Source: Nanobdellati archaeon
Lineage (GTDB): Archaea > EX4484-52 > WAPT01
Direction: 5' to 3'
DNA length: 39,104 nucleotides
NCBI GenBank assembly: GCA_015520605.1
Contig: WAPT01000025.1
Span: 1 to 39,104 of the forward strand
Below are positions 329 through 20,730 of this stretch, one piece after another (the stretch's first letter is position 1; each line of letters begins with the position of its first letter). A program made the translations under genes and the position numbers. The notes under the pieces are model-generated. The model was not told where the DNA came from. It saw only the letters and a program-made list of their open reading frames with translations, and did no database searches.

Positions 329-661
329 CTACTCCATCTCATCCTGCACGTATTTTCTACCAGTTTTGAGACATTCTTCTGCTCTGGCAAGTTCATAACC
401 GAGATAAGCGGCATGATCCAGCATTGTCACAAGATCGTATTTTAGTATGGTACGGAACAGATCTATACTGTTTTTTCCTCGGAAAACAAACTTGAGCCTC
501 CCACTTCCCGGCTTTTTATCATCTCCCACATATTCATAAGCTTCAACAACGATCTCCTTTGCCTCGTGATCCACATTTATGACGAAGAAATGTCTATCAA
601 GCTTTATCTCAGATTCATCATGCTTCTCGGCCCTTATCTCAAAAATCCTGTGGGGAAGCAT
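329..661 (-). CDS. Stand-alone DUF4346 domain protein
   Basis: C-terminal LDHAAYLGYELARAEECLKTGRKYVQD matches the DUF4346 signature HAxYLGxELxxAExxLxxGxxYxQD. Its start overlaps the glyA stop by 1 nt (TAATG). Confidence 0.85.
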   Translation of the reverse strand: MLPHRIFEIRAEKHDESEIKLDRHFFVINVDHEAKEIVVEAYEYVGDDKKPGSGRLKFVFRGKNSIDLFRTILKYDLVTMLDHAAYLGYELARAEECLKTGRKYVQDEME

Positions 662-1917
662 TAGCAGTAGTGCACCTCCCTAAAGCTTTTTCTGAACTCC
701 ACAACATCATCCCTAACATTTTCATCCTTAACGATTACACGATGTATGAATTCTGCTATCACTTCCATGTCACTTTCCTTACACCCCCATCTCGTCATTT
801 CCTGTGTGCCTATCCTTATGCCAGAGGGGTTCTTCATTGTCTCAGCGTTTGTTTCATCCCCAGGAATCATGTTCTTATTGGCTATTATGTTATTCTCTTC
901 CAGCTTTTCAGCGTTAATCTTACCCCCTCCATACTCCCTCACATCTATAACAACTTGATGGCTCTCGGTGTATCCGTATGGTTCTCCAAGAACCCTAAAA
1001 CCAAATTCTGCTAGCCTTTCTGCAAGCTTCTTAGCATTCTTTATGGTCTGCCTGGCGTAAGCCTCGCCATACTTCCACATTTCCCATGCTGTTTGCGCCA
1101 GAGCAGGAAGCCTGTGAATGTGATGGTTGCACACCAGCCTTGGAAATATGGCTTTTTGCACTCTTTCAAATTCGACATTTTCAGCAGCCATTACAACTCC
1201 TCCCTGGGGGCCGGGAAACGTTTTGTGAGTCGAGCTGGTGACTATGCTCGCGCCTTCCCTGAAAGGTTGCTGAAATTGCCCTCCTGCTATCAAACCAAGG
1301 ACGTGTGCGGCATCATAAACTACCAAACCTCCATAACTCTTTGCCGCATCGCTTATCTCCTTTATCGGGTGAGGGAAGAGGAAAAGCGAAGCTCCAAGTA
1401 TGACCATCTTTGGCTGCTCTTTCTCAATGATTTTCACCGCCTTATCCTCATCTATGTTCATCCTCTCCCTATCAAACGGAAGCTGCAGGACTTCCACACC
1501 CCTCAAACCAAGTGCGCCATGAATTGTGTGAGAGACGTGCGCTCCTGCAGGAACATCCAGAGCAGCAACTTTATCCCCATTTTCCAGAAAAGCAACGAAT
1601 ACGGCAAGGTTTGCTATTGTGCCGCTCAGGGGGCGGAGATCAACGTGATCAGCATCGAAAAGCACGGATATGATTTTTTGAGCCCTGACCTCCACCTCGT
1701 CCAAGTACTTGTGCCCTTGGTAGTATCTTTTGAAGGGTAAGCCTTCAGCATATCTGTGCATCATATCATTGAGATAAAGCCTCTCTGCCACTGGAGACAT
1801 GACGTTTTCGCTTGCTATGAGGTTTATACACTCGTATTTGCGCCAGAGATCATGGTGTTTGGTCAGATAAACAATCTCTCCTATCAGCTCCTCTGGACTT
1901 TTCTTCATCAGCACCAC
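661..1917 (-). CDS. glyA: Serine hydroxymethyltransferase, archaeal type
   Basis: LIASEN, YAEG, GAHVSH, DAAHVLGLIAG and the PLP-lysine motif SSTHKTFPGPQGG are present. Start is GTG 1917 or ATG 1908. Confidence 0.97.
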   Translation of the reverse strand: MVLMKKSPEELIGEIVYLTKHHDLWRKYECINLIASENVMSPVAERLYLNDMMHRYAEGLPFKRYYQGHKYLDEVEVRAQKIISVLFDADHVDLRPLSGTIANLAVFVAFLENGDKVAALDVPAGAHVSHTIHGALGLRGVEVLQLPFDRERMNIDEDKAVKIIEKEQPKMVILGASLFLFPHPIKEISDAAKSYGGLVVYDAAHVLGLIAGGQFQQPFREGASIVTSSTHKTFPGPQGGVVMAAENVEFERVQKAIFPRLVCNHHIHRLPALAQTAWEMWKYGEAYARQTIKNAKKLAERLAEFGFRVLGEPYGYTESHQVVIDVREYGGGKINAEKLEENNIIANKNMIPGDETNAETMKNPSGIRIGTQEMTRWGCKESDMEVIAEFIHRVIVKDENVRDDVVEFRKSFREVHYC

Positions 1918-2065: not shown

Positions 2066-3361
2066 ATGAAAGCCGTGCGAGAGATTGTAAGAGCAGAACC
2101 CATTGACTATGCTCCGGTTTTTGAAGGTTTCGGGCCTGATGAAATAGTAACGGTATCGGGCATTCTCACGGCAAAGCGGGGCAGCTTCAAAGAGATGCTC
2201 AACACGCTTGATCCAGGTGTTGTAAAAAAGTTCCATCGGGAAGCGACAAGAAGGGGACATGCAAGTCTGCTAACAACACCCACATTCTATTTTTGGGTTG
2301 AGGGAAGCAGACTTATAGATCTCTTTTTCACAGCTTTTCCCTTTGGATCCTACCTGATGTTTAGTTCGCGCCGAATTGAGGTTACCAAGGAAAACATGAT
2401 CATCCCGGATGCTGTTGCAGGGACACCTTACGAAAAGGGTTATGTTCGGGTCTGCGAGAAGCTACTGAAAGTTTATAAGGAGCTTCTAAAGATTGGATAC
2501 GACCAAGCGAGGAACATACTCCCACTCGGATTCAGTTCTTATGGGTTATTTTCATTCCCAATGCAGACGATCCTCACGGCCATCAAAGAATGCGAACTAA
2601 ATCCTGAAATTCCTGAAGAAATACAGCTTATTTCCAACTTTTTCAAAGAGATTTTGAAGGAAAAAACACCATTCATCTTTGGCGCTTCCGAGAAAGCACA
2701 TTCCACGGGTTACCCGTTTCCCAACATATTTGGACGCCATGAAATAATGGAATCTCCTTCCATAGATGTTGTTCATGCAGGTGATATAAAAAGCGTCATT
2801 AAGCTGGTTTCTGAGAGGGGCTGGAAAGAAGCTGCAGAGCATGCGCAGACAGAGATTCTTGTCAAATGTGTGAGCACGCTATCCATAGCGGCGTGGAACG
2901 AGATAAAAAGGCACAGAACGGTCAGGCAATTCGTCGAGCCGATCTATGTTGCAGCGGAGCGATACCTCAGGGATCCGAAGGAAGAGTATTTTCACATCCC
3001 TCCGGATGCGGGTAAAAATTACATTGAGGCATTTCATGAAGCTATGGTGTTCTATGAGAGGCTTGTTGATGAGGGTGTGGATAGAAAACATGCGGTCTAC
3101 ATAGTGCCGCATGCTCTTAAAATAAAATTCAAGCTGCTCTTGGATGGGTATCATCTGCTGAACCCCTTCGGTTTTCTGGGTGTGAGGTGCTGCACCACGA
3201 CCCATTACGAGGTGAGGAACTTTGCCGGAGAAATAATACGTGCACTATCTGATTCTTTTCCGGAGCTGGAACCCTTGCTTGGACCCAAGTGCAAGACGGG
3301 TGTGTGTCCTGAGAGGAACCCATGCGGTAGGGTTAATCTTTACAGAAAAAACAAAAATTAA
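2066..3361 (+). CDS. thyX: FAD-dependent thymidylate synthase, tandem (double-domain) type
   Basis: RGHASLL and SSRR in the N-half. EIKRHRT, A-x-Y-I-V-P and terminal GPKCxxGxCPExxxCG in the C-half. 431 aa is about twice a single ThyX domain. Confidence 0.85.
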   Translation: MKAVREIVRAEPIDYAPVFEGFGPDEIVTVSGILTAKRGSFKEMLNTLDPGVVKKFHREATRRGHASLLTTPTFYFWVEGSRLIDLFFTAFPFGSYLMFSSRRIEVTKENMIIPDAVAGTPYEKGYVRVCEKLLKVYKELLKIGYDQARNILPLGFSSYGLFSFPMQTILTAIKECELNPEIPEEIQLISNFFKEILKEKTPFIFGASEKAHSTGYPFPNIFGRHEIMESPSIDVVHAGDIKSVIKLVSERGWKEAAEHAQTEILVKCVSTLSIAAWNEIKRHRTVRQFVEPIYVAAERYLRDPKEEYFHIPPDAGKNYIEAFHEAMVFYERLVDEGVDRKHAVYIVPHALKIKFKLLLDGYHLLNPFGFLGVRCCTTTHYEVRNFAGEIIRALSDSFPELEPLLGPKCKTGVCPERNPCGRVNLYRKNKN

Positions 3362-6575: not shown

Positions 6576-7061
6576 CTATAAATTCATTATGTATCTGTCT
6601 TCAGTAACATGCGAGAGTGGCACAAAGTCCTTCCTTCTAATATGTTCTTCCACAACCTCTCCTACAACTATGTAATGATCTCCGTGCCTGTACATCCCAT
6701 CAACAACACACTCGAAGCTTATCGGCGCTTCCCTTATACACGGTGCGCTGATTTTTCTTGACGGCTCTTTTGTCAGATTGGCAAGTTCAAACTTGTCAAC
6801 ATACCTGCCAGAATGAGTGCCGCAGATTTCTGCAGCTTTTTTCATGCTCACATCACACACATTAATGGTTAACTCCTTCGTTTCCTTCAGGTTCTCGAAG
6901 GTGTATCTCTGCGGAGCTATGGAAACCGCCAGATATTTCGGTTCAAAACTCACCGGCATAACGAAGCTTGCGGTCATGACGTTCGGCTTTCCTTCTCTAT
7001 TCACAGAGCATACAAGTACAACGGGCCTCGGCCATATCTGCTGGGAGATGCGCATCCGCAC
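6576..7061 (-). CDS. Flavin reductase family protein (DIM6/NTAB, split-barrel FMN-binding)
   Basis: PRPVVLV, NVMTAS, CGTHSGRYVDKF, FEC and GDHYIVVGEV. Starts 15 nt after the thyA stop. Confidence 0.9.
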   Translation of the reverse strand: MRMRISQQIWPRPVVLVCSVNREGKPNVMTASFVMPVSFEPKYLAVSIAPQRYTFENLKETKELTINVCDVSMKKAAEICGTHSGRYVDKFELANLTKEPSRKISAPCIREAPISFECVVDGMYRHGDHYIVVGEVVEEHIRRKDFVPLSHVTEDRYIMNL

Positions 7062-7076
7062 TACACCTTTCCAGAT

Positions 7077-7772
7077 TTACTCCCTTACAGATTCAGCAAC
7101 TCTCCTTGCGGTTTCAAAGTCCCTGCTATAAATATGAGCTGAAACAGAATAGCTATGTAGCTCTCCCATGAAAACTCTCTCACCAAGTCTCTTTCCAACT
7201 TCTTCCGCAACATACTTCTGGAGGTGTGTCAAAGCTACCCAGTTAGCGTAGCTCGCTCCAAAAATATCGTGGCTTCTGAAAAGCACGTCCATGTGTAGCT
7301 TTTTTACCGCGGGTAGCATTGGCGCTTCCTTCTCTTCCCTTATATTGAAGCAGATCACACGGAGGCAGGGGGGATCCCTTATCCTGTTAGGGAAGTGGTC
7401 TAAGGTCGGAATGGTGAGGTCGATAACTGCACGCCTGGTGAAAGGACTTTTGCTGAGTCTTTCTATGACGGCTTCCACTTGATTAACCTTTTCATCCCAT
7501 TTCCATATTCGTTCGCCGTATGTGTACTGAAAGCCCCACCTATTCTCCGGAGTCATAAGCTGATCGACATAGTCCTGCAAAGCTTTTCCGTGAAACGGAT
7601 ATTCCGCGGGAGCTTCATCTATACTTATGGTGGGCTTTTTTATCCTGACTGCAAGCCCTATAATCTCTTTCGTTTCGTCACCATCTTCTGTGACCATAAT
7701 TTTTCCGTGCTCCATAACCGCTTTGACGGCTTTCCTCCATGCATCCTCCGTAGTGTTTGCAACTATCAGCAT
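7077..7772 (-). CDS. thyA: Thymidylate synthase, short archaeal (methanogen-like) ThyA
   Basis: YTYGERI, TRRA phosphate-binding arginines, catalytic PPC, RSHDIFGASYAN with the dUMP-specifying Asn, and SAHIY. Probable start is ATG 7772 (231 aa); the ORF track extends to 7886. Confidence 0.88.
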   Translation of the reverse strand: MLIVANTTEDAWRKAVKAVMEHGKIMVTEDGDETKEIIGLAVRIKKPTISIDEAPAEYPFHGKALQDYVDQLMTPENRWGFQYTYGERIWKWDEKVNQVEAVIERLSKSPFTRRAVIDLTIPTLDHFPNRIRDPPCLRVICFNIREEKEAPMLPAVKKLHMDVLFRSHDIFGASYANWVALTHLQKYVAEEVGKRLGERVFMGELHSYSVSAHIYSRDFETARRVAESVRE

Positions 7773-7810
7773 AACATAATCAAAGCATGAAAAATTTTTT
7801 AGGGTTCGCG

Positions 7811-7849
7811 ACTTTGCCGGGAGAGTTGCGAGACATATTGCCGGCAATA
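7811..7849. promoter_or_regulatory. Pair of palindromic candidate operator sites between divergent thyA and wHTH genes
   Basis: Perfect 14-bp palindrome TATTGCCGGCAATA (7836-7849) and imperfect ACTTTGCCGGGAGAGT (7811-7826). Their CCGG centres are 24 bp apart. Confidence 0.55.
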
Positions 7850-7857
7850 CGGAAATC

Positions 7858-7865
7858 TTTATATA
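7858..7865 (+). promoter_or_regulatory. Putative TATA box for the wHTH / giant surface protein operon
   Basis: TTTATATA preceded by GGAAA (BRE-like). A Shine-Dalgarno-like GAGGTG lies at 7921-7926. Confidence 0.55.
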
Positions 7866-7937
7866 CAACTCATCATTCTTATTCACTCTATAGCTCGAGA
7901 TTTCGAAATGCGAGTATGGCGAGGTGCTTTGAAGATC

Positions 7938-8159
7938 ATGAATATCTGTGAAAGAATTGTTGAGGAGCTTTCAAGGAAGCCAATGTCTGTTTCTGAGTTA
8001 GCTAAACGTCTCAATCTGAGGAGGGAGTTCTTGACGGGATACCTTGAAGCGATGAGGCAACAGGGTCTGTTGGAAAGAGTGGTGGTGGGGAGAGCACACG
8101 TTTACATCCCAAAACAGACCGTTTCGCTTAGTGGTGTGAGTGATGGTGAAGAGGAATAA
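7938..8159 (+). CDS. Small winged helix-turn-helix regulator
   Basis: IVEELSRKPMSVSELAKRLNLRREFLTGYLEAMRQQGLLERVVVGRAHVY is a typical archaeal wHTH. Start is ATG 7938 (alternatives 7929, 7908). Overlaps the start of the giant gene. Confidence 0.8.
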   Translation: MNICERIVEELSRKPMSVSELAKRLNLRREFLTGYLEAMRQQGLLERVVVGRAHVYIPKQTVSLSGVSDGEEE

Positions 8160-14100: not shown

Positions 14101-17100
14101 AACAAAACCGTTTTTGAAAATGTTACTGTGAAGTTAATCTCCACAACAACCGGTAAGGAATATGTTAACCGCACGGATAATAACGGGGTGGTGACCTTTA
14201 ATGTTACCTCCGACAGGTTCGATGTTATTGTTGATGGCTCTGATATGGGCTACGGGATTCTCACACTCAAGCGGGCAATAGCCATCGGATGGCTGAAGAT
14301 TAACGAGGGCAAAACCTATGCCAATGGTTACGTACGGCTTGATGTTGACGGGCAGCGCTATTATTATGTATTGGTGAAGGCGCCCGGTTATGAGGAATAT
14401 GACTCTAGAGATGAAGGCAAGGTGTATTTCGGTACACACACGATGGGTGATCATAATAACATTAATCTAAGTGGAACTGTAGAGGTGATGGGCCACGTTT
14501 ATGATACCTATTTTTCAAATCCCATCGACGCCAGAAAGAACATTTCTGGTGCGGATGTTTATCTCTATAGCTTAACCGGAACACCTTATGTAAGATACAG
14601 ATTCACAACGGACTCTAACGGTAACTTTTATGGTAGAATTTCTCCATATGTGGAGGGATCATCCATCCATGATAAAAGCTTGGACACATACAAACTTGTG
14701 GTTAAAAGGAAGGGATACATTACTTATACATACATAAACAGTACTACAGGTAATTCCAGAATCATTTTTGGTGATGACGAAAAAAAGTACTTCAACATAG
14801 GTATGACTGGTGTCGGAAGAGTTTACGTGCACCTTTACGATAAGGTAAATGGAGCACCCATAACTAACTACTCAAGCTTTAAACTTATTGATAGCAATGG
14901 GGTGGAACTTTACAGAAACATAGGCAGGGAAGGAAATCTGCTTTACGGTATTTACAATCCAGACTACAACCCTGCTCATCTTGTGGTGGAGGCCAGCGGG
15001 TATTGTCCGGCAGATATACCCGTAACATCTTTCGGTAACCTCATAAACATTCCCGTTTACCTGTACACATACGAAACATCGCAGCTGCTCATAACCGTAA
15101 GGGACATGCTGACCAGTCAGCCTGTTTCAGGTGCCACGATAACCTGCTATTACCTCGGCACCGACGAGAAGGTGTGTGAGGCGAGAACGAATTCCAGCGG
15201 CATGGCTCTGGTAACGATAAGTAAAAGCGGAACTTTAAACATTAAAATTAATGGGACATCCACATATCACGGAATCAAAATGATAGAGAATGTGAAAATC
15301 AATCCATGCGATGGGATCAAAATCAAAATCATAAATACAACTCTAATCCCGACGGGAGCGATAATCAGGGCGGTGAATGATCTCAATGAATACATCGATG
15401 GAAGGGTTCGCATGGTTAACACAAGAACGGGAAGAAGCTACGAGGTTCACATCAAGAATGGCGAAGCCATTTTTGCACCCATTCCGCCGGGTAATTACTC
15501 AATTGATTATGAACTTGGCCTGGTATATCTGCCGGCGAACGTATCCAATTATGTAAACATAACATCTTACGGTCAGCTTAAAAATGTAATTTCCATATTT
15601 AACGAGACCAGATTCGAAGTAAAGTTGGTTGATAACCAGACCTCTCTACCTGTGCGGGATATTAAAGTGTGTCTTGGCACCACATGTCTGTTTACAAATT
15701 CGGATGGAATTGCTTTGTTCAGGAGAGTCATACCCGGAAATTACACTTTGACCTTTGATAAGCTAAGTTCTTATAAAGCTGGATATTTCCCACACAACGA
15801 TGTTAACGTGAGTGTTGTTCGTGGTAAAAACGAGAATACAGGTAATAAGTTGGTGGTTAACCTTACACCAACTAAGGGATATAGCATTCTTCATATTAGG
15901 GTCAGAAATATCTACGCGAAGAACACCATGATCTATGTCTATGCCGATGGTGCAAGACTATATGCTCTTAATACAAGCAGAAACGGACTCGAGGCGTTTA
16001 TTCCTCTGATATATCCGCGAGAGGCAATGAAGGTCAAGGTTAAGGCCACACATCCTGGCTGTGGTATGTTTGTTTTTGGTCCTGTAGACCTAACAGAACA
16101 AGAGGTCAGGGATGTTTACATAACATTCAAATGCAGATCTGCAAGTTCCGAGGAGGGGTATAGACCATTAACTACTACCTCAATTAACGGAACGGGTAAT
16201 TTTCCTCAGAACAAACCTTTTTTTGCGCTCACCGTTGTTCCAAATCCAGTCGAGATATCTCCGGGCGGGTGCGCAACCGGAGAGTTAAGTTTAGAGAACA
16301 CGGGAGAAAAAATAATCACAAATGTGGTTTTGCGGAGTATAAAAACACCATACTACGCAATCAATGGTATTGGTCACATAGTAGCACTACTTCCGGATGA
16401 CAGGGAAATAATAAGATACTCGCTATGTATTTTCCGACCAGTAAACGAAGTTACAGCGACTCTTCTTTCCGATCAGTTGACAAAGGAGGTCACGATACCA
16501 GTGACATTAGTCCCTGAGACCATCAATGAAACGGAAACCAAGTCAATGCTTCTCGAAGACCTCAACGAGCTTAGGATGAAGTTGCTGAGCATTAACAGGA
16601 GCGCATTGCCTCCCGAGTTGCAACGAGAATATGATGAGGTGCAGGCACATTTGCAATTTGCGAGCAATTACGTAGCGAGTGGCAACTACGCACTCGCGAG
16701 AAATGAAACAGAGGAGGCGAGAAGAATATTGGAAAATCTGGAAAGTTACATGGTGTCCACTAAACAGAATGGATTGAATAAAAAAAGAGGAATTTCAAAA
16801 GAAACGATAATAATATTGTCCTTTATAGGGGTCTTTGGGATCTTAATACTGATTTATTTGAAGGAAACAAGAAATATTTTCAAACAAGCGTCATCTGGAT
16901 CTGCAAGTTTACTCTCAAAAATAGTGAAAGATATACCTGCGGGATTCGTAAAGAGAGCTGAAAAAAATAGAGGGACGTATCGCACATCCTCGATCCCGTC
17001 CAGATCATCCATACATCCCGTTCCCCGGTTCACCGCTGAAAACGTACCAGTTGTGATGGAGGGAGGAAAAGATATTCATCCTGAGCATTCAGATTTTCTT

Positions 17101-17226
17101 TATTTCACGGAGCCCGTTGCAAAACAGGAATACATATCTTACCTCAAAAAAGTAATAGAGAGCACGGAACGCTGCCCTTACTGTGGAATGAGGAAGGTCA
17201 ATGGAAGGTGTCTTAGATGTGACTGA
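8140..17226 (+). CDS. Giant (3028 aa) type I membrane-anchored surface glycoprotein / adhesin: signal peptide, LamG domain, many Ig/CnaB/carboxypeptidase-regulatory-like repeats, TM anchor, cytoplasmic Zn-ribbon
   Basis: N-terminal basic + hydrophobic signal ending AFA. LamG motifs ALSFDGVDDYV and NGTIDEVRIYNRALS. Recurrent PIxNATV...TDxNG...Y.I...KxGY units. Very frequent N-x-S/T sequons. TM IIILSFIGVFGILILIYL. Terminal CPYC...CLRC. Confidence 0.9.
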   Translation: MMVKRNKWFMVKVTVLLLVVLTVVNFSAHVAFAQPSITLVPPTPKNGSVINVSWFEVNASSVAANLTQLNLTLDGVNYSVYDNSIVLYLGFNNVSAIGENSTNFVDISLYGNNGTCNITAGTCPEYAVGIFGNALSFDGVDDYVEVPDGSEFNFTASDKFSVCAWVNLPETSSYEAVVSQGDYSGWRLFVYNTSYFFGFNGTDGVYRQTGAPFVYGSWQFICGEYNGTHILLYRNGDLDSAYFTNATPIDPNAPVIVGATYTGASAVLRWFANGTIDEVRIYNRALSDEEIKLLYRSYLAKLNATVWNFYANITNQSDGLHTFSLTLEDNGSAVATTGTRYVIVDTKPPRIIVTSPVNMSEYSSRNVTLNVSVADVTPANITYEVDDNGTILTLCTNCYGGSAVLSNLSDGLHTVKITAVDAAGRQNETRVYFRVGATPVHFIIVDGQNTSLSVVGALITLVGNETFIPSIYSNLTNSSGMVTFLVDSSQEYSIIVSKDGYRTIVLNNVVFKAGDVINLTLWGNTTINGTVLDILTNLSIKNATVKIYNASDYQLKYVVRTDDNGWFSAEIPSTMDYIIEISSINFVTRSWYFDAGTNLNNYTFELYETGWGSFEVWVVDYQNHAPIENATVTFVLSASENFTGTTDSNGYARVFVKANLIDGYPARYGIVIKKDGYREYENLSANLTIEEGENVLVGEFELKGWYVINGTVTDEFNPSLAVSNASVELWWMDGGTLDAPVNINGYRYYTMTDERGHFEIYVPKLLLENRTFALRIDRAGYQHLDYPSNGVGLSAGEQGVFNLNIKMKGTINIKLTVKDEGNGAPVPDLPVVIKENSTEGYNYIAPATYTFRTNGDGTINVYIRGNDGYTVVVDGSSNGYQTPSPIEVNTGTDLDRVVYLRGSLQITGRVIDVNTDENGYTITLPGIRVVLCPVSGSTSCYVTETSSSGIFSVYVKGYEDYEITADGKESGYNTTTILVNSAATTSLDVGDIVLEGRCTITGRVIDKYSRYIPKGVSPYIPNPRVIVVMNFNGKLIRYSVVGDDNGYFTIKVPAGQIASSIRIEVLGYYPYLLENVGTVDGTKNLSTISLVGATHLEGKVVDAHNGKSLGGVSVKIYEPENGSSKLRYELTTNDSGQFNIDLGVTTEYTVELSRAGYTTASFEETPFENISRTYFMTGAGKISGEVLDYYTGTPLQNFTVELYAEGDTTPTYKFSNLHGSFTMFVDSTKCYRIRVYQYGYPVLWVGGGKCYTPPVDFSGSNAIKLRAYFETFVCDRYSYDPDSESPCYPHRPIKNADVVLYFRTNETGNYEINGLNVTKVRIDLSTKYCSNSSAKITLTKLDGCTQAQQNHNLCTMTGTTNSTGYASFLYVPVGKYRVTVDAVSQGCGIKEEEFNISTENAGKLNVWKIEFVRTWLEINVTDGQYPIGGVNVTLWNGSVIARNTVGDPLTAITGIDGKVVFDMMSPGTYTLTMKKTDAGIDIVRTVEVKEGNNTLVFDVLPPRITDTYPKDGDIIIHGCALSPPQPLTLWVATSEPTTANITLEKYDGTLQLPLITSNVTETNHSWELALSCGDWVWNITACDSAGNCNHTHVTFILANGTSTVAFTILDNGVAVSGANVTMWTATGKIAENTTGANLTAITGIDGRVVFTGVIPDSYNITVKNATKPVLTFMRGIYNTNYNFIVDYQRPSITAVEPENNTKYYVACGVDKGANVTFSINTSESTNFSVDLEGVQTIHWGNQEVSNSTLFNLTLPCGKWKWNVTVCDLTGNCTNKTNLIFEIVDTSFIVNVTDEYGRPLDNISVTVSNATYAETIRTTNGLAIFGKLENNTLYNITVNGTLQGYGNAVFTNHDVIWGDVLGVSLNVTTLTVLVYDPSGNPVSGAEVKVYENSSGSWTLARDANGNPLINTTGIDGKVVFTRVLPCDYCNVTVNKTGTINSTILSIRAGEKEQVNLDPEIISGETPFEPINSSSGERFLVILKILDEFNKTVFENVTVKLISTTTGKEYVNRTDNNGVVTFNVTSDRFDVIVDGSDMGYGILTLKRAIAIGWLKINEGKTYANGYVRLDVDGQRYYYVLVKAPGYEEYDSRDEGKVYFGTHTMGDHNNINLSGTVEVMGHVYDTYFSNPIDARKNISGADVYLYSLTGTPYVRYRFTTDSNGNFYGRISPYVEGSSIHDKSLDTYKLVVKRKGYITYTYINSTTGNSRIIFGDDEKKYFNIGMTGVGRVYVHLYDKVNGAPITNYSSFKLIDSNGVELYRNIGREGNLLYGIYNPDYNPAHLVVEASGYCPADIPVTSFGNLINIPVYLYTYETSQLLITVRDMLTSQPVSGATITCYYLGTDEKVCEARTNSSGMALVTISKSGTLNIKINGTSTYHGIKMIENVKINPCDGIKIKIINTTLIPTGAIIRAVNDLNEYIDGRVRMVNTRTGRSYEVHIKNGEAIFAPIPPGNYSIDYELGLVYLPANVSNYVNITSYGQLKNVISIFNETRFEVKLVDNQTSLPVRDIKVCLGTTCLFTNSDGIALFRRVIPGNYTLTFDKLSSYKAGYFPHNDVNVSVVRGKNENTGNKLVVNLTPTKGYSILHIRVRNIYAKNTMIYVYADGARLYALNTSRNGLEAFIPLIYPREAMKVKVKATHPGCGMFVFGPVDLTEQEVRDVYITFKCRSASSEEGYRPLTTTSINGTGNFPQNKPFFALTVVPNPVEISPGGCATGELSLENTGEKIITNVVLRSIKTPYYAINGIGHIVALLPDDREIIRYSLCIFRPVNEVTATLLSDQLTKEVTIPVTLVPETINETETKSMLLEDLNELRMKLLSINRSALPPELQREYDEVQAHLQFASNYVASGNYALARNETEEARRILENLESYMVSTKQNGLNKKRGISKETIIILSFIGVFGILILIYLKETRNIFKQASSGSASLLSKIVKDIPAGFVKRAEKNRGTYRTSSIPSRSSIHPVPRFTAENVPVVMEGGKDIHPEHSDFLYFTEPVAKQEYISYLKKVIESTERCPYCGMRKVNGRCLRCD
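9088..9380 (+). repeat. 17-bp direct repeat AGCGATGGTCTGCACAC (9088-9104, 9364-9380)
   Basis: Both copies encode SDGLHT in consecutive Ig-like domains. Confidence 0.75.
12487..13088 (+). repeat. 35-bp direct repeat with one mismatch (12487-12521, 13054-13088)
   Basis: ACCGCCATAACAGGGATTGACGGCA(A/G)GGTTGTTTT encodes TAITGIDG(K/R)VVF. A third, diverged copy (TTGIDGKVVF) lies near 13870. Confidence 0.85.
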
Positions 17227-17263: not shown

Positions 17264-18151
17264 TCACAGCTCAAGCCCGTAGACCTGAATAAAACGAGAG
17301 TTTCTTTCCTCCACCAGCATTTCCACAAAGGCGGTCGCGTCAAACACATACCTTGCATTTTCTATTGGGCCGTAGAGAACAAAATCCGCACCGAATAGAA
17401 CTGGCAGTACACTCGATGCCACATCAACATGCTTGCAGCTTTCTCTTTTTTTTATCCAACTCCACGAACTCACAGCATTATGCATCCCGCAACCGGTGGG
17501 ATAACCGTACCTCGCTTTCAGCGTGACCAGAGCCTCCAGAGACGTGGCCGCACCACGTTTTAGCGGTGTGGTGGCGGTATCCATCATAAGATTCTCGGCA
17601 CCGATCTCCCTGACATTTTCAAGCAGTCCCTTACCGAGAGCACCGTCCTTCTCAAGACACGATATCTTGTCCTCAATACTTTCTCCCCCGACAGCATGCG
17701 CAAGGATCAGAACATTTTTTAATCCAATTTCTGTAAGTTTTTCCTTTTCATCCCTGTTAAGGGTTATGTTTATGGAGTTGTACACAATTCTTGAGAGAAA
17801 CCCGGTTTCCTTTGCAAATTTTATTGCCTCTACTCTGGCCTTATAGCTGAGAGAGTCCACGAGAATGGGATTCCCGTCCCTTTCAGCCACAAACTCGAGC
17901 CGTTTGAGCAAGGAGGTGCTATCTTTTCCATAAACATTGGTCATGTAAGGGATTCTGGTTTCATCGCTTCTCTCCTGTTGCAGAACGAGAAGTTCTTCAG
18001 CCTTGTCGCTATCGAATTCACCGTTTTGCTTCACTATTTTATGTCCTTCATAAAAAATCGTTCCGATCATGACTGGCGGCGTTTCTCCGGGCTGACCTCC
18101 AAGCACGATATTTCCTATTTTCATTTTTTTCTGATCCGGATAGAGGAACAT
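17264..18151 (-). CDS. mtrH: MtrH-like pterin-binding methyltransferase
   Basis: GGQPGETPPVMIGTIFYEGHK, DS, YNSIN, TGCGMHN and GADFVLYGPIE. Start is ATG 18151 after a GAGGTG SD; the ORF track extends to 18184. Confidence 0.92.
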   Translation of the reverse strand: MFLYPDQKKMKIGNIVLGGQPGETPPVMIGTIFYEGHKIVKQNGEFDSDKAEELLVLQQERSDETRIPYMTNVYGKDSTSLLKRLEFVAERDGNPILVDSLSYKARVEAIKFAKETGFLSRIVYNSINITLNRDEKEKLTEIGLKNVLILAHAVGGESIEDKISCLEKDGALGKGLLENVREIGAENLMMDTATTPLKRGAATSLEALVTLKARYGYPTGCGMHNAVSSWSWIKKRESCKHVDVASSVLPVLFGADFVLYGPIENARYVFDATAFVEMLVEERNSRFIQVYGLEL

Positions 18152-18205
18152 GCGTTTTCCACCTCTCTGCGGAGGAAGATCCAAAATTCAAAGCAACATC
18201 AAAAA

Positions 18206-18844
18206 CTAATTCTCACACAATCTTTCCATCATGTTTATTTTAAAAGTTAGCGGATCCAGAATAGTAATCTCGTTGAGGTAAATGACCTCGCTTTTTCCTG
18301 AGTAGATTTCGCATCTCTTCGTATCTTTTGTCTTGTGCCCGAAGGTATGCAGCACTTCATCAACATCCACTTTTTTGGGAAACTGCTGTGGTTTTTCCTT
18401 TTCAAGTTCCGTCAAAACCTCCTCAATTTTGGACACGGAAACGTTGCCTACGAGATCAACAACCTCCAGTATCTGCTGTCTGAAGTGTTCTACCCATTCC
18501 CTCCTTATGTTTTCAAGATAAGGAATGGCACCTCTTGCCCCGACAATTCTACCTTCTCCATCCACCCCATTTTCAACGAGCTTTATCAGTGCGTCTCCGG
18601 GATAATGTCCTTTCGATTCCTCGCCGTATAGTACGAGATAGCGGATGTTGGGATTGGTTATCACGTTGACTATTATTTTTTCAACTCCCAGATTCTCCGT
18701 TTTGACACTGCCGAGTATGGCGATAGAAACGTGATGGAGAAGATCTGTGAAACTCTCCGGTTTGGTATTGAGGGTTGCTACAGCGATCCAGCCTTCCGGG
18801 TTGTTTACAATATAGTCCCCGATTAGTGGGGGCCAATTTTTCAT
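18206..18844 (-). CDS. mtrA: MtrA-like corrinoid protein, soluble (no C-terminal TM anchor)
   Basis: WPxxxGDY, KTENLGVEKIIxNxxxNPNIRYL, GxExKGH (cobalt-ligand His, codon 18605-18607) and GARGAIPYLEN. Confidence 0.92.
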   Translation of the reverse strand: MKNWPPLIGDYIVNNPEGWIAVATLNTKPESFTDLLHHVSIAILGSVKTENLGVEKIIVNVITNPNIRYLVLYGEESKGHYPGDALIKLVENGVDGEGRIVGARGAIPYLENIRREWVEHFRQQILEVVDLVGNVSVSKIEEVLTELEKEKPQQFPKKVDVDEVLHTFGHKTKDTKRCEIYSGKSEVIYLNEITILDPLTFKINMMERLCEN

Positions 18845-18855
18845 CGAACCTCACA

Positions 18856-19422
18856 TTATATTTTCTTTGTAGGAAACGATGGATTTGGTTGGGAAATAGC
18901 CAACCCTCCAAGAAGATGTGAGACATCGACGAAATCCACTTTTATTCCCGCATCTTTGAGAATCTCGAGCCCTTCGGTATCGCTGTATTCTCCGCAGACC
19001 ACAACCCTTTTTATTCCCGCATTAACCGTCATTCTGGCACACAGCTTGCAGGGAAACCCGTTTACATAAAGAGTTGCACCTTCTGCATTTCTGCCTGCCT
19101 GCATCAAAGCGTTCATTTCGGCATGAACAGCTATGCACTCCTCATGCATCATTCCGCTTGTACCACCTTTGGCCCTCTTCGGGCAGTATCCGAGTTCTAT
19201 GCAGTCTTTCATACCTCTCGGGGCTCCATTATAACCTGTAGATATGACTTGTTTGTTCTTCACCACCACCGCACCGTACTGCCTTCCAGGGATTATGCAG
19301 GTGGATCTCTGCGCAACAACCCAAGCCATTAAAGCGAAGTATTCGTCCACGCTTAATCTGGTTCTGCGCAGTGGTAAACTCTTTTCGTTTTCTCTTCCCA
19401 TAATCTCGGTTTTATCCCTCAT
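18856..19422 (-). CDS. dCMP deaminase (ComEB/deoxycytidylate deaminase family)
   Basis: RSTC, STGYNG, and zinc motifs HAE and PCxxC. Probable start is ATG 19422 after a GAGGTG SD. Confidence 0.9.
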   Translation of the reverse strand: MRDKTEIMGRENEKSLPLRRTRLSVDEYFALMAWVVAQRSTCIIPGRQYGAVVVKNKQVISTGYNGAPRGMKDCIELGYCPKRAKGGTSGMMHEECIAVHAEMNALMQAGRNAEGATLYVNGFPCKLCARMTVNAGIKRVVVCGEYSDTEGLEILKDAGIKVDFVDVSHLLGGLAISQPNPSFPTKKI

Positions 19423-19488: not shown

Positions 19489-20730
19489 TTACATTCCCAT
19501 AACTGGGGGAAACCACCTCTTTGCTTTTTTTCTTTCCTCCTCTTCCTCTTTTTTCATTACCCTCCACACGGGCTTGAGAACCTTCTCGAGATTTCTGACC
19601 TCGTCAGCTGAATTTCCCACACCGCATGTATTTCCCACACCCACGACCAGAATATTTCTGTGAGGGCTGAGCTTTATGAGTTCCTTAACTTTTTCCAGGG
19701 CTACAGGAGCAGCTCTGTATATCTCCCTCTTCATGGGGATGGATGCTTCAACATCCGACATTTTTATTATGACCCCGTCAAGCTCTATGCCATGCTTCGT
19801 GGCTATCTCCTCCACGAAAGGTCTATCAACTCCATAAGGAGACATGACAAAACCAACACCTTCCGCCACACTGCCCGTCTTCTCACCCTCCAGTTTAAGG
19901 CTGGCATCAATAGAAATAATGTGCTTTATCTTTTCCTTCTTTACAATCTTCTCTATCGCTCTCCACATCTTTGTCTGGGAAATTTCGGCGCCCTTTCCCT
20001 TGGCCTTCAAAACAAAAACATCCTTACCGTCTATTTTCTCCTTACTGACAACAACATCTGGCTCTATCTCCTCCCCTTCCTTGCTCTTCATCATCGTGGC
20101 CACAAGCGGTCCTATACCGTCCCCTATCGGTATCCCGTCCAGAAAAGCTTTTGTTGCTTTCAGATTTGCCTTGGCGGCTTTCATGATTTCAGGAAGCATC
20201 ATCTGAATTATGAGTCCGAGCTGAATGTTATTGGTCCTTTTTATGGTTTCCACGTAGTGTCTCATAATCTTATAGATCATAACAACACTCATCGCCCCAA
20301 GCAACCCGAACTTGACGTTTTTCTTACTGTCCCTCTCTTCGATTTCTGCTATGCGAGACACGAACCTTTCTATTCTTGACTCGGCAAGTTTGGTTATATG
20401 TTCTATTTTGTTGAGTATCCCGTAGGGATCTATGTCTACAGGAGAAACAGCAAAAAAGTCCATGAACGCACTGATTTTTTTTCTTAGTGTAACGGTGCTA
20501 GCTCCTTTCTTTCCTTTTAGTTTCTTTATTTTCTTCACGACATCATTCTGAGATTCTATAGCGTATTCTTCCAGTTTAACGAGCTCAGATTCAAGTGTGT
20601 TGAGTATCTGCCATAAATATAATTTTGGATAGAAATAAAGAAATACTAAAAATAATAAAAATGAAAACAAATCTCCACCTCCGAAAAGATTACCATTCAT
20701 TTTTAAAACGTTCACGCTATCACCTTCCAA
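19489..20730 (-). CDS. DUF1512 family protein
   Basis: N-terminal TM, PVDIDPYGI, PIGDGIGPLVA, IDASLKLEGEKTGSVAEGVG and VGVGNTCGVG. Exact start uncertain. Confidence 0.85.
   Translation of the reverse strand: MEGDSVNVLKMNGNLFGGGDLFSFLLFLVFLYFYPKLYLWQILNTLESELVKLEEYAIESQNDVVKKIKKLKGKKGASTVTLRKKISAFMDFFAVSPVDIDPYGILNKIEHITKLAESRIERFVSRIAEIEERDSKKNVKFGLLGAMSVVMIYKIMRHYVETIKRTNNIQLGLIIQMMLPEIMKAAKANLKATKAFLDGIPIGDGIGPLVATMMKSKEGEEIEPDVVVSKEKIDGKDVFVLKAKGKGAEISQTKMWRAIEKIVKKEKIKHIISIDASLKLEGEKTGSVAEGVGFVMSPYGVDRPFVEEIATKHGIELDGVIIKMSDVEASIPMKREIYRAAPVALEKVKELIKLSPHRNILVVGVGNTCGVGNSADEVRNLEKVLKPVWRVMKKEEEEERKKAKRWFPPVMGM

Follow-up and report, generated by a model that had tools for sequence, protein, structure and literature searches.

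A pair of MtrA-like and MtrH-like proteins, apparently soluble, and a short thymidylate synthase of the methanogen type (ThyA-like), all encoded on one contig of a small symbiotic DPANN archaeon, point to an undescribed B12-dependent route for making thymine, as judged from the gene order and gene fusions of relatives. The pair probably works with the ThyA-like enzyme in dTMP synthesis. A specific methyl-donor mechanism, in which the methyl group of a methyl-pterin would pass to the cobalt of MtrA and from there to dUMP via the ThyA-like enzyme, is a tentative proposal that we hold with slightly more doubt than confidence. The window, i.e., the whole stretch of DNA that was analysed, comprises 39,104 nt (positions 1 to 39,104 of contig WAPT01000025.1) and belongs to an 863-kb genome assembled in 27 contigs and 90.7% complete, in which a genome search finds MtrA and MtrH in single copy. 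No publication was found on a thymidylate link between MtrA/MtrH and ThyA; the trees of Adam et al. (2022, figs S1, S2) might already show DPANN sequences.

The deaminase-MtrA-MtrH locus

The cluster reads as follows, in the direction of transcription:

19489..20730, minus strand: DUF1512 protein (PF07431, E 1.1e-36; PF23542, E 1.3e-47)
18856..19422, minus strand: dCMP deaminase, putative dUMP supplier (PF00383, E 8.9e-21)
18206..18844, minus strand: MtrA-like putative corrinoid protein, predicted soluble, 212 aa (PF04208, E 1.4e-46)
17264..18151, minus strand: MtrH-like putative methyl-pterin:corrinoid methyltransferase, 295 aa from its ATG (PF02007, E 4.5e-75)

The deaminase, mtrA and mtrH ORFs of the window are co-directional on the minus strand, and the gaps of 11 nt and about 54 nt that the preliminary description placed between them are those read in the sequence: 11 nt separate the deaminase TAA from the mtrA ATG, with GTGAGGT in between, and 54 nt separate the mtrA TAG from the mtrH ATG at 18151, which is preceded by AGAGGTGG. 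Similarly, GAGAGGTG precedes the deaminase ATG at 19422. The mechanical ORF of mtrH opens earlier, at TTG 18184; the start is placed at ATG 18151 because the G041 orthologue starts at the same position. The locus had been described as an operon led by dCMP deaminase. The order of deaminase, MtrA and MtrH is real, but a DUF1512 gene lies 66 nt upstream of the deaminase, a position common to this genome (G000), G040 and G041, and may be the first gene of the cluster instead. The order DUF1512, deaminase, MtrA, MtrH recurs in all three genomes of genus g1. A sigma-70-type promoter/terminator scan returned 5 promoter-like sites against 6.7 expected and was left unused because this type of scan is unsuited to archaea. 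Purifying selection acts on MtrA, MtrH and ThyA (dN/dS 0.10–0.19; 0.17 for the MtrA-like and 0.19 for the MtrH-like protein), and dN/dS of the deaminase against G040 is 0.15.

The MtrA-like protein scores 158.8 bits against PF04208 (Pfam gathering cut-off 25) and stays below the cut-off of the NCBIfam equivalog TIGR01111 (149.4 vs 249.15). Its H80, the His of the GH pair picked out as a cobalt ligand in the preliminary description, does fall on the cobalt-coordinating His when the protein is aligned to the experimental MtrA structures 5l8x and 5laa (E 1.7e-37). E50, H80 and I107, unchanged in all 16 relatives compared, align with the His84-Glu54-Ile111 linkage of the lower cobalt ligand, which a passage of PMC4915002 describes for a cytoplasmic MtrA homologue; from this homology we infer that the protein binds a corrinoid. 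The same description had the protein ending without a transmembrane helix, and hydropathy agrees: within the C-terminal 60 residues, the Kyte-Doolittle mean over 19 residues peaks at 0.85, below a transmembrane mark of 1.6 that was our own choice. At 212 aa, the protein falls among the MtrA sequences shorter than 215 aa that the relevant part of PMC4915002 classes as cytoplasmic, and a C-terminal helix is likewise missing from 80 of 81 homologues of comparable length. The tail carries a motif, (V/I)DP(L/V)(S/T)F.I, that is kept across genera; an identity of the tail with a short DUF4346 domain was ruled out (hhalign probability 0.3%). The MtrH-like protein scores 253 bits against PF02007 (gathering cut-off 22.8), falls below the equivalog cut-off of TIGR01114 (245.5 vs 271.4 bits) and also matches the model of the folate-dependent MtgA at 185 bits.

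The pair had been called an orphan, and no MtrE, the subunit searched for among MtrB, C, D, E, F and G, is found in this genome or in the other four of the five genomes searched. McrA (this genome searched), Mer and CobS are likewise absent here, MTHFR is absent from this genome and G040 (best tblastn E 0.33, against 1e-75 for the control), and DHFR is absent from all five genomes searched. Sodium pumping and coenzyme M methylation are thus excluded as far as tested, since anchor, MtrE and McrA are all missing. Family membership, intact cobalt-ligand residues, the missing anchor and the absence of McrA, MtrE and Mer lend support to the earlier suggestion of a cytoplasmic methyl shuttle. Cobamide use through salvage, proposed at the same time, also gains: the genome encodes a class II B12-dependent ribonucleotide reductase (776 bits) and a B12-binding-domain protein, and lacks CobS.

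Several known systems resemble the pair in part. The cytoplasmic MtrA, or MtxA-MtxH, of methanogens is, in the passages of Wagner et al. (2016; PMC4915002) that concern it, likewise soluble, shorter than 215 aa, endowed with the His-Glu-Ile linkage and partnered by an MtrH paralogue. Unlike MtxA/MtxH, the proteins described here come from a non-methanogenic DPANN host, score below the NCBIfam equivalog cut-offs and, in the case of MtrA, have a tail motif of their own. In comparison with the mtxXAH operon (PMC12978539), mtxX is absent from the cluster, the neighbours are DUF1512 and dCMP deaminase, and the context is that of thymidylate synthase. The energy-conserving MtrA-H complex (PDB 8q3v, 9qts) has the same MtrA and MtrH folds (the MtrA domain matches 8q3v chain A at E 3.7e-33) and presumably carries out the same first half-reaction, from methyl-pterin to Co(I); the present genome differs in lacking the anchor, MtrE and McrA. 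The soluble MtrAH of Thorarchaeia, treated as methanogenesis remnants in part of PMC9635834, also occur in a non-methanogen and without membrane subunits.

Thymidylate and one-carbon genes of the contig

The same contig carries five further genes of thymidylate and one-carbon metabolism:

7077..7772, minus strand: ThyA-like, methanogen-type thymidylate synthase, 231 aa, proposed methyl acceptor enzyme (TIGR03283)
6576..7061, minus strand: flavin reductase-like protein, starting 15 nt past the ThyA-like gene (PF01613, E 9.3e-36)
2066..3361, plus strand: divergent ThyX-like protein of 431 aa in which two Thy1 domains stand in tandem (PF02511 matched in two stretches, E 2.4e-29)
661..1917, minus strand: serine hydroxymethyltransferase (SHMT), putative methylene-pterin source (PF00464, E 7.3e-66; NF000586, 444 bits, cut-off 335)
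329..661, minus strand: stand-alone PterinBD-DUF4346 protein, overlapping the SHMT stop (PF14251, E 9.2e-21)

The ThyA-like gene lies 9.4 kb away from the MtrA/MtrH pair. Its mechanical ORF spans 7077-7886, and the start is placed at M39, where 10 orthologues begin. The protein passes the cut-off of TIGR03283 (177.9 vs 174.55 bits) and shares 33-40% identity with proteins of Methanobacterium and Methanothermobacter that are annotated as thymidylate synthase. All 24 sequences compared keep its catalytic Cys, RR, RSxD, N and HxY, and its predicted structure has a ThyA-superfamily fold (pLDDT 92.8), with a phage dCMP hydroxylase and a flavin-dependent ThyA-fold monooxygenase (9iqu, 9iqc) among the best structural matches. 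Classical ThyA is matched at profile positions 92-219 of 266 only, and TIGR03284 gives 25.4, below its cut-off of 108.35. This partial match and the lack of DHFR in the five genomes searched argue against placing the protein with the classical folate-dependent ThyA (EC 2.1.1.45). The family retains the Asp of RSxD, which we take to bind the pterin in classical ThyA; the retained residue fits classical methylene-pterin chemistry equally well, an observation against the relay proposed below. According to a passage of PMC9931769, no archaeal thymidylate synthase has been both purified and characterised, the studies having used cell extracts only, and part of PMC9012536 gives the cofactor of methanogen ThyA as unknown. 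A complex prediction for a ThyA-like dimer with MtrA-like scored 0.02 against a mark of 0.32 and has no bearing either way.

The other four genes vary in their conservation. The flavin reductase-like gene adjoins ThyA in G040, in G041 it follows ThyA at a distance of about 1.2 kb, and no homologue was seen beside ThyA in the g2 or g4 loci. The SHMT-DUF4346 pair is kept in g1 and g2, and public proteins include fusions of the DUF4346 domain with MtrA, ThyA or both. The ThyX-like protein scores 47 bits against TIGR02170, below the cut-off of 87.9, and is a possible alternative thymidylate synthase. It is present in this genome and G040 and absent from G041, where MTHFR occupies the syntenic place; that two genomes carry a ThyX-like gene instead of MTHFR also speaks against the relay.

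Fusions, gene order and phyletic pattern

The link to ThyA comes from a comparison of 42 genomes in 13 genera of the phylum. By coordinates and Pfam domains, MtrA and ThyA are encoded in a single open frame in 10 genomes, which belong to three genera, g9 (six genomes), g11 (three) and g12 (one), and two g13 proteins have a weak ThyA-type match (TIGR03283, E 8.6e-5). In a pool of 234 public proteins, 71 are at least 330 aa long, and 26 of these 71 contain both MtrA and ThyA domains; public data thus hold at least 26 fusion clusters, in several domain orders (MtrA-ThyA, MtrA-ThyA-DUF4346, MtrA-DUF4346-ThyA), and ThyA-DUF4346 fusions as well. The nucleophile Cys and the dUMP-binding residues are kept in the ThyA part of nearly all fusions. 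In g11, g12 and 10 of the 26 public fusions, F, Y, W or a gap stands where the ligand His would be, most fusions that keep it (those of g9 and g13 included) lack the Glu of the His-Glu linkage, and both residues are kept in 2 of the 26. Corrinoid binding is therefore not assured in the fusions. A model of one natural three-domain fusion (P0136) has confident domains, a pTM of 0.56 and a linker at 153-171 with pLDDT below 50; at this pTM no fixed domain interface can be claimed, and a flexible linker fits a swinging corrinoid domain. Fused genes of g9 to g13 have no neighbours conserved between genera; within g9, but in no other of these genera, RimK-like and MscS-like genes recur.

Where the genes are separate, their order tells a similar story. 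MtrH lies 17-42 nt upstream of ThyA in four of the seven MtrH-bearing g2 genomes (G002, G005, G006, G008), and in five of the seven MtrA-bearing g2 genomes the MtrA-like gene is preceded, at 9 to about 30 nt, by a dCTP deaminase (PF22769). This enzyme is unrelated to dCMP deaminase but has the same output. The tie to dUMP supply that was first suggested from the present locus is consequently stronger than it seemed, drawing on the deaminase order, the dCTP deaminase of g2 and the MtrA-ThyA fusions. An MtrA-MtrH fusion beside a DUF2114 gene was found in G032 alone; DUF2114 (marker 14), tried as a candidate activase, was rejected, being seen in that one genome of the 42.

Genera g1, g2, g4, g9, g11 and g12 have both the short ThyA type and MtrA, while g3 and g7 have neither and carry canonical ThyX in eight of eight genomes; the sole genome with a canonical full-length ThyA (327 bits) is without MtrA. 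ThyX was found in none of the 23 genomes of g2, g4, g9 and g11, which leaves the ThyA-like protein as their only visible thymidylate synthase. In g4, MTHFR and MtrH are each present in 4/4 genomes and a MetE-like methionine synthase in 0/4, so MtrH is the visible user of methyl-pterin there. A MetE-like gene is also missing from g1 (0/3); a core MetE-like gene is present in five of eight g2 genomes, and in G004 and G003 it lies a few kb from MTHFR. MtrH, SHMT and MTHFR were not found in the fused lineages g9, g11, g12 and g13; the fusion, whatever its role, must hence act without MtrH.

TIGR03283-type proteins of this phylum are fused to or adjoin MtrA, MtrH or DUF4346. As an observation against the relay proposed below, none of the three was found within 10 kb of a methanogen-type ThyA at 67 loci outside the phylum; the outside records are titled Methanothrix, other Methanosarcinales, Thorarchaeota, Altiarchaeota or, in some cases, only archaeon. 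Among 87 genomes of one Asgard class, 59 have both genes, 5 ThyA only, 19 MtrA only and 4 neither, a co-occurrence that does not discriminate because both genes are too common. Thorarchaeial MtrA scores far higher against the MtrA profile than that of this phylum.

A proposed cobamide methyl relay and its alternatives

Thymidylate is known to be made by two routes, through folate-dependent ThyA and flavin-dependent ThyX. The genes described above could form a soluble three-part cobamide methyl relay for thymidylate synthesis, with MtrA-like and MtrH-like as its first two parts. By homology, MtrH would move the methyl group of methyl-tetrahydropterin to the Co(I) of MtrA-held cobamide, a transfer that has been shown for MtrH and MtrA of methanogens. 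The ThyA-like enzyme, judging by its conserved residues, would activate dUMP via the catalytic cysteine and, as fusions and gene context suggest, would shift the methyl group from CH3-Co(III)-MtrA to C5 of dUMP, yielding dTMP and Co(I) and no dihydropterin. The dUMP would be supplied by the co-oriented dCMP deaminase, the cobamide would be imported, and SHMT and MTHFR would make methyl-pterin from serine where the pathway is complete (G041, g2, g4). Together with methanogen-type ThyA, the relay could amount to a third, cobamide-dependent mode of thymidylate synthesis that would run from serine through methylene-pterin, methyl-pterin and CH3-Co(III)-MtrA to C5 of dUMP, with the ThyA fold serving as a methylcorrinoid:dUMP methyltransferase that forms no dihydropterin; we regard this bolder claim as possible, with doubt clearly prevailing. 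The absence of DHFR fits a route without dihydropterin. Against the relay, this genome and G040 lack MTHFR and also Mer, and thus show no source of methyl-pterin at the very locus described here; the missing MtrH of the fused lineages and the altered cobalt-ligand residues of many fusions count against it as well.

In three-component corrinoid systems and in MetH, one methyltransferase on the pterin side loads Co(I), from which a second enzyme delivers the methyl group to a nucleophile. The proposed relay would follow this logic, except that the acceptor would be a carbon of dUMP in a ThyA fold and not a thiol. By homology, the corrinoid protein and the loading methyltransferase of such a system appear to be present, and fusions and gene order make the ThyA-like protein a candidate for the second, corrinoid-unloading methyltransferase. 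Unlike those systems, the phylum has no identifiable ATP-dependent reductive activase of the RACo/RamA type (RACo-type PF14574, 0/42 genomes), a further observation against the relay.

Alternatively, the ThyA-like enzyme may be classical and use SHMT-made methylene-pterin, with MtrH and MtrA stripping methyl-pterin, host-salvaged or formed by MTHFR, to free tetrahydropterin for SHMT and handing the methyl group to some other acceptor. SHMT and DUF4346 do share the contig, any methyl-pterin would have to be imported where MTHFR and Mer are missing, the RSxD Asp is invariant, and the MtrH family includes tetrahydrofolate enzymes that work in either direction, such as the MtgA matched here. We nevertheless consider this unlikely: it leaves unexplained the corrinoid-ThyA fusions in 10 genomes and 26 public clusters and the position of MtrH directly before ThyA in g2, shows no methyl acceptor (MetE-like being absent in g1) and has no DHFR to recycle the dihydropterin of the classical reaction. 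Loss of the His ligand from many fusions, and of MtrH from the fused lineages, would be easier to understand if MtrA fed electrons to, or merely stabilised, a ThyA-like enzyme using methylene-pterin or formaldehyde as its carbon source, the reductant in place of pterin being reduced flavin, from the adjacent flavin reductase, or cobamide Co(I). The flavin reductase-like gene 15 nt after ThyA-like and the resemblance of the ThyA-like model to the hydroxylase and monooxygenase point the same way, but the flavin reductase is found near ThyA only in g1, MtrH is left without a role even though it adjoins ThyA in g2 and MtrA in g1, and characterised MtrA-type proteins are all methyl carriers according to a passage of PMC4915002, which makes this reading quite improbable.

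Two further proposals take the methyl group elsewhere. Methanogen core MetE enzymes reportedly take their methyl group from corrinoid proteins, and the core MetE-like gene of g2 suggests that the pair might feed a corrinoid-dependent methionine synthase or another methyltransferase, the position of the deaminase being incidental. As a general account this is very unlikely, given that MetE-like genes, the methionine synthase type covered by the search, are absent from g1 and g4 despite MtrA and MtrH, and that another genus has the deaminase link too, through a non-homologous enzyme; in g2, where five of eight genomes have the MetE-like gene, methionine synthesis could be a second, or the actual, destination of the relay. 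The published default is a methanogenesis remnant that funnels methyl groups into the Wood-Ljungdahl pathway: in the parts of Adam et al. (2022; PMC9635834) that bear on it, many non-methanogens are said to retain MtrAH, and the role of MtrAH without membrane subunits is called unclear. Here this default is extremely improbable; the methyl branch is missing from the 863-kb genome, which has no Mer, MTHFR, McrA or MtrE.

The locus and its relatives join two questions, the mechanism of the short archaeal ThyA and the role of membrane-free MtrAH, and turn them into a single bench experiment with four small soluble proteins. If the cobamide relay is real, a function could be assigned to the orphan soluble MtrAH/MtxAH pairs of Thorarchaeia, DPANN, CPR and methanogens, and there would be a reason why archaeal ThyA has escaped the purification and characterisation found wanting in the cited passage of PMC9931769. 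In these organisms DNA synthesis would need B12 twice, for ribonucleotide reduction and for making thymidylate, both running on imported cobamide, and the relay would show how genome-reduced symbionts make DNA precursors.

A thymidylate island around a soluble MtrA-MtrH pair

The contig is a thymidylate island, in which the soluble MtrA-like and MtrH-like genes (the pair) lie behind a dCMP deaminase gene and on one contig with a methanogen-type thymidylate synthase gene (ThyA-like):

329-661, minus strand: DUF4346 protein, encoded beside SHMT
661-1917: SHMT (444 bits versus a cut-off of 335)
2066-3361, plus strand: divergent tandem ThyX-like protein, 431 aa, two Thy1 (ThyX) domains
between the ThyX-like and flavin reductase-like genes: Lrp-type regulator, GNAT and M20 peptidase
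6576-7061: flavin reductase-like gene
7077-7772: ThyA-like gene (TIGR03283, the methanogen-type thymidylate synthase family; 177.9 bits, above the curated cut-off of 174.55)
8140-17226, plus strand, opposite to ThyA-like: surface protein gene, 3028 aa
17264-18151, minus strand: MtrH-like protein (PF02007, E 4.5e-75)
18206-18844, minus strand: MtrA-like protein (PF04208, E 1.4e-46)
18856-19422, minus strand: dCMP deaminase (PF00383, E 8.9e-21)
closing the island with the three preceding genes: DUF1512 gene

The deaminase, MtrA-like and MtrH-like frames are co-directional on the minus strand, and in the sequence a purine-rich GGTG-type motif stands ahead of every start codon. The spacings of 11 and 54 nt given in the preliminary description are borne out, as is the three-gene cluster as a whole. 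For MtrH, the mechanical frame begins at TTG 18184, and ATG 18151 corresponds to the start position of the orthologue in G041, a genome of the same genus (g1). Neither protein of the pair reaches the NCBIfam equivalog cut-off for a true Mtr subunit (mtrA, 149.4 versus 249.15; mtrH, 245.5 versus 271.4), and the MtrH-like protein also resembles folate-dependent MtgA.

Over 150 residues the MtrA-like protein can be aligned to two solved structures of MtrA, 5l8x and 5laa (E 1.7e-37). Its H80, E50 and I107, unchanged in 16/16 relatives, are the counterparts of the His84-Glu54-Ile111 linkage, which sits under the cobalt in MtrA according to Wagner et al. (2016, PMC4915002). The last 60 residues contain no membrane helix (top hydropathy mean 0.85) and a tail motif, (V/I)DP(L/V)(S/T)F.I, is kept across genera; an origin of the tail as a DUF4346 remnant was rejected (hhalign probability 0.3%). 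A related motif, hydrophobic-hydrophobic-D-x-x-A-W-x-hydrophobic-A, stands at the end of soluble MtrA paralogues about 200-220 aa long (P0007-P0061, public homologues of the MtrA-like protein, the named minority labelled Methanothrix, Methanocrinis or Methanosarcina), and a C-terminal helix is absent from 80 of the 81 MtrA-like homologues of near length.

In the ThyA-like protein the nucleophile Cys is retained, as are the Arg pair and the RSxD, Asn and HxY residues; proteins of Methanobacterium and Methanothermobacter that bear the name thymidylate synthase share 33-40% identity with it. Its model (pLDDT 92.8, pTM 0.90) matches the ThyA superfamily at TM 0.65-0.78, the top structural matches including MilA, T4 dCMP hydroxymethylase and two flavin-linked phage enzymes. 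The tandem ThyX-like protein (2066-3361) scores 47 bits, far under the ThyX equivalog cut-off of 87.9, and may be a single-chain pseudo-dimeric ThyX. The surface protein gene is convergent to mtrH and lies between the MtrH and ThyA genes. Its product has an N-terminus resembling a signal sequence, numerous N-x-S/T sites and an anchor at the C-terminus; the C-terminus is kept in G041.

NCBIfam NF002128 (an 'MtrA' model of 390 positions) and TIGR00284 (dihydropteroate synthase-like protein) both match DUF4346 at their C-terminal ends. The domain, encoded at window 329-661 and present in P0065, P0082-P0084 and further public proteins, has four pterin-linked partners, SHMT as a gene neighbour and MtrA, ThyA and a DHPS-like protein in fusions, and looks like a pterin-related adaptor domain. 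No paper containing the word DUF4346 was found in the open literature searched.

Genome content and distribution across the phylum

The genome (863,228 bases in 27 contigs, of which the window, 39,104 bases long, is one entire contig; 90.7% complete, contamination nil) contains a single MtrA and a single MtrH. McrA, MtrE, Mer, MTHFR (best tblastn E 0.33 versus controls near 1e-75), a MetE-like gene, DHFR, CobS and a RACo-type activase were not found in it. With neither McrA nor MtrE found at this completeness, the pair appears to be an orphan. Cobamide use by salvage, the other genome-wide proposal of the preliminary description, agrees with the absence of CobS and the presence of a class II, B12-dependent ribonucleotide reductase (776 bits versus a cut-off of 400) and a B12-binding domain on a 473-aa protein; therefore MtrA is not the sole support for cobamide use by import.

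Within g1, G041 has no ThyX; between its ThyA and SHMT genes lies an MTHFR whose N-terminus is MetV-like. The window's genome (G000) and G040 carry the tandem ThyX, Lrp, GNAT and M20 genes in its place; MTHFR is absent from both, and MtrA, MtrH and ThyA are intact despite this absence. dN/dS is 0.17 for MtrA, 0.19 for MtrH and 0.10 for ThyA, and 0.05 to 0.15 for five measured neighbour genes.

The phylum comprises 42 species genomes in 13 genera of one order; many are 57-90% complete, so that single misses mean little, and kin are not independent.

Table. Genomes with a match per genus (genomes surveyed in brackets; G000 is included in g1), in the order MtrA, ThyA, MtrH, DUF4346, MTHFR, SHMT, ThyX, MetE-like
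g1 (3): 3, 3, 3, 3, 1, 3, 2, 0
g2 (8): 7, 6, 7, 7, 6, 7, 0, 5
g3 (4): 0, 0, 0, 0, 0, 4, 4, 0
g4 (4): 3, 4, 4, 3, 4, 2, 0, 0
g5 (1): 0, 1, 0, 0, 0, 1, 0, 0
g6 (1): 0, 1, 0, 0, 0, 0, 1, 0
g7 (4): 0, 0, 0, 0, 2, 4, 4, 2
g8 (1): 0, 0, 0, 0, 0, 0, 0, 0
g9 (8): 7, 6, 0, 0, 0, 0, 0, 0
g10 (1): 1, 0, 1, 1, 0, 0, 0, 0
g11 (3): 3, 3, 0, 0, 0, 0, 0, 0
g12 (2): 1, 1, 0, 1 (weak), 0, 0, 1, 0
g13 (2): 2, 0, 0, 0, 0, 0, 0, 0

In g2, MtrH precedes ThyA with a gap of 17-42 nt in G002, G005, G006 and G008; in G007 the distance is about 660 nt, in G004 it is 5.4 kb, and in G003 the two genes are on separate contigs. A dCMP deaminase stands in front of MtrA in 3/3 g1 genomes, and a dCTP deaminase (PF22769, E 6.4e-48) 9 to about 30 nt ahead of MtrA in five of seven g2 genomes. 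These deaminases are unrelated, and their recurrence upholds the proposed tie to dUMP supply. The first reading of the cluster is supported and extended. MtrA and ThyA matches share one open frame of 419-517 aa in g9 (6 genomes), g11 (3) and g12 (1), the stops flagged in these frames being terminal stop codons.

Canonical ThyX complements this distribution, occurring in g3 and g7, both without MtrA and ThyA. The exceptions are g6 (78% complete), with a ThyA of intermediate score, ThyX and no MtrA; g10, with an MtrA-MtrH fusion adjoining DUF2114 and no ThyA; and g4, where the genes are scattered. The g5 ThyA is canonical and full-length (327 bits) in a genome without MtrA; the g12 ThyX belongs to the second genome of the genus, not the one with MtrA and ThyA; and g13 gives no Pfam ThyA match and one protein with a weak TIGR03283 match (E 8.6e-5).

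At the g10 locus (L182, G032:C15, 1532-6057) the MtrA-MtrH fusion is 544 aa long (PF04208 + PF02007), flanked by the DUF2114 gene (divergent, of marker-14 type) and an ORF of 454 aa without a Pfam match; neither ThyA nor ThyX was found in G032, the sole g10 genome. In 4/4 g9 loci examined (L178-L181), the region upstream of the MtrA-ThyA fusion contains, divergent to the fusion, a tandem pair of RimK-like ATP-grasp genes and a gene for an MscS-like channel. RimK-family ligases glutamylate methanopterin and F420.

Fusions and linkage beyond the phylum

Searched against 1.84 billion representatives, a g9 fusion gave 848 matches at E up to 0.001. Pooled public proteins (234) were typed with the window's MtrA, ThyA and DUF4346 as queries; among the 71 of at least 330 aa, MtrA occurs together with ThyA in 26 and with DUF4346 in 26. 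Of the MtrA-ThyA proteins, six end in a DUF4346 domain and one carries it between the other two domains; ThyA-DUF4346 fusions are also present. One source names such a fusion 'tetrahydromethanopterin S-methyltransferase subunit A/thymidylate synthase'. As leads only, the ESM Atlas offers three-domain-type clusters with mostly bacterial labels and one two-domain cluster labelled mostly Nanobdellota.

The ligand His is retained in the window's MtrA-like protein, g9, g10, g13 and 16/26 public fusions; g11, g12 and the remaining 10 have it replaced. Its Glu partner is lost in most fusions, and the ThyA Cys is retained in nearly all.

No MtrA, MtrH or DUF4346 was found within 10 kb of 67 ThyA loci outside the phylum, and MtrA is present in 5/5 tested non-DPANN genomes with methanogen-type ThyA. 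In one Asgard class (n=87), 59 genomes have both, 5 ThyA only, 19 MtrA only and 4 neither, a two-by-two table that is uninformative because both genes are so common there. In this class, that of the L142 genome (Candidatus Thorarchaeota archaeon; G042-G129), 27 of the 59 genomes with both genes carry methanogen-type ThyA and MtrA on a single contig at a distance of 17-24 kb, which is conserved synteny, not an operon; ThyA might be the missing methyl sink of the Thorarchaeial MtrAH module.

A possible methyl relay to dUMP

All characterised MtrA-type proteins are carriers of a cobalt-bound methyl group that MtrH takes from methyl-tetrahydromethanopterin (PMC4915002). In the proposed relay, the methyl group would pass from MtrH to the cobalt of MtrA and on to ThyA-bound dUMP: the ThyA fold, via its cysteine, would generate a C5 carbanion equivalent, and C5 would attack CH3-Co(III), giving dTMP and Co(I). 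Such a relay would need neither pterin hydride nor DHFR, an enzyme indeed missing here. When a corrinoid module is fused to an enzyme, the methyl group normally goes to the substrate of that enzyme; SAM-dependent uracil-C5 methyltransferases share ThyA's Cys chemistry, and for TsrM it is accepted that methylcobalamin donates a methyl group to carbon in a polar transfer. The putative supply chain of serine, SHMT, MTHFR, MtrH, MtrA and ThyA is complete in G041, g2 and g4, and in g4 no methyl-pterin consumer is visible aside from the MtrH pathway. Gene order and fusions make a joint role of the pair and ThyA in dTMP synthesis quite probable; direct transfer from CH3-Co(III)-MtrA to dUMP via ThyA-like is proposed tentatively, its odds falling somewhat short of even.

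Several observations fit direct transfer poorly: no methyl-pterin source is visible in the window's own genome, cobalt ligands are lost in many fusions, no activase was found, the pterin-side Asp of ThyA is kept, and the 67 ThyA loci outside the phylum have none of the proposed partners close by. The fused lineages are without MtrH, SHMT and MTHFR, and so without a visible carbon source under any reading. The flavin reductase gene and the flavin-type structural neighbours of ThyA-like allow a flavin-based variant of its reaction, and the MetE-like gene of g2 allows a methionine role in that genus. Adam et al. (2022, PMC9635834) describe MtrAH as kept by many lineages in an unclear role, with a hypothesised feed into the Wood-Ljungdahl pathway.

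In the published record, mtxA and mtxH are functionally unassigned (PMC12978539) and archaeal ThyA biochemistry is unsettled (PMC9931769, PMC9012536). No paper linking MtrA or a corrinoid to thymidylate synthase was found in the open literature searched. The parts are known; their combination is, within the literature searched, an undescribed variant of corrinoid methyl relays. The module here includes MtrH, the pterin-side enzyme, a sister genus supplies an MtrH-ThyA operon, and relatives supply the full serine-to-methyl line. If the mechanism is true, it would add a third kind to the known types of thymidylate synthesis.
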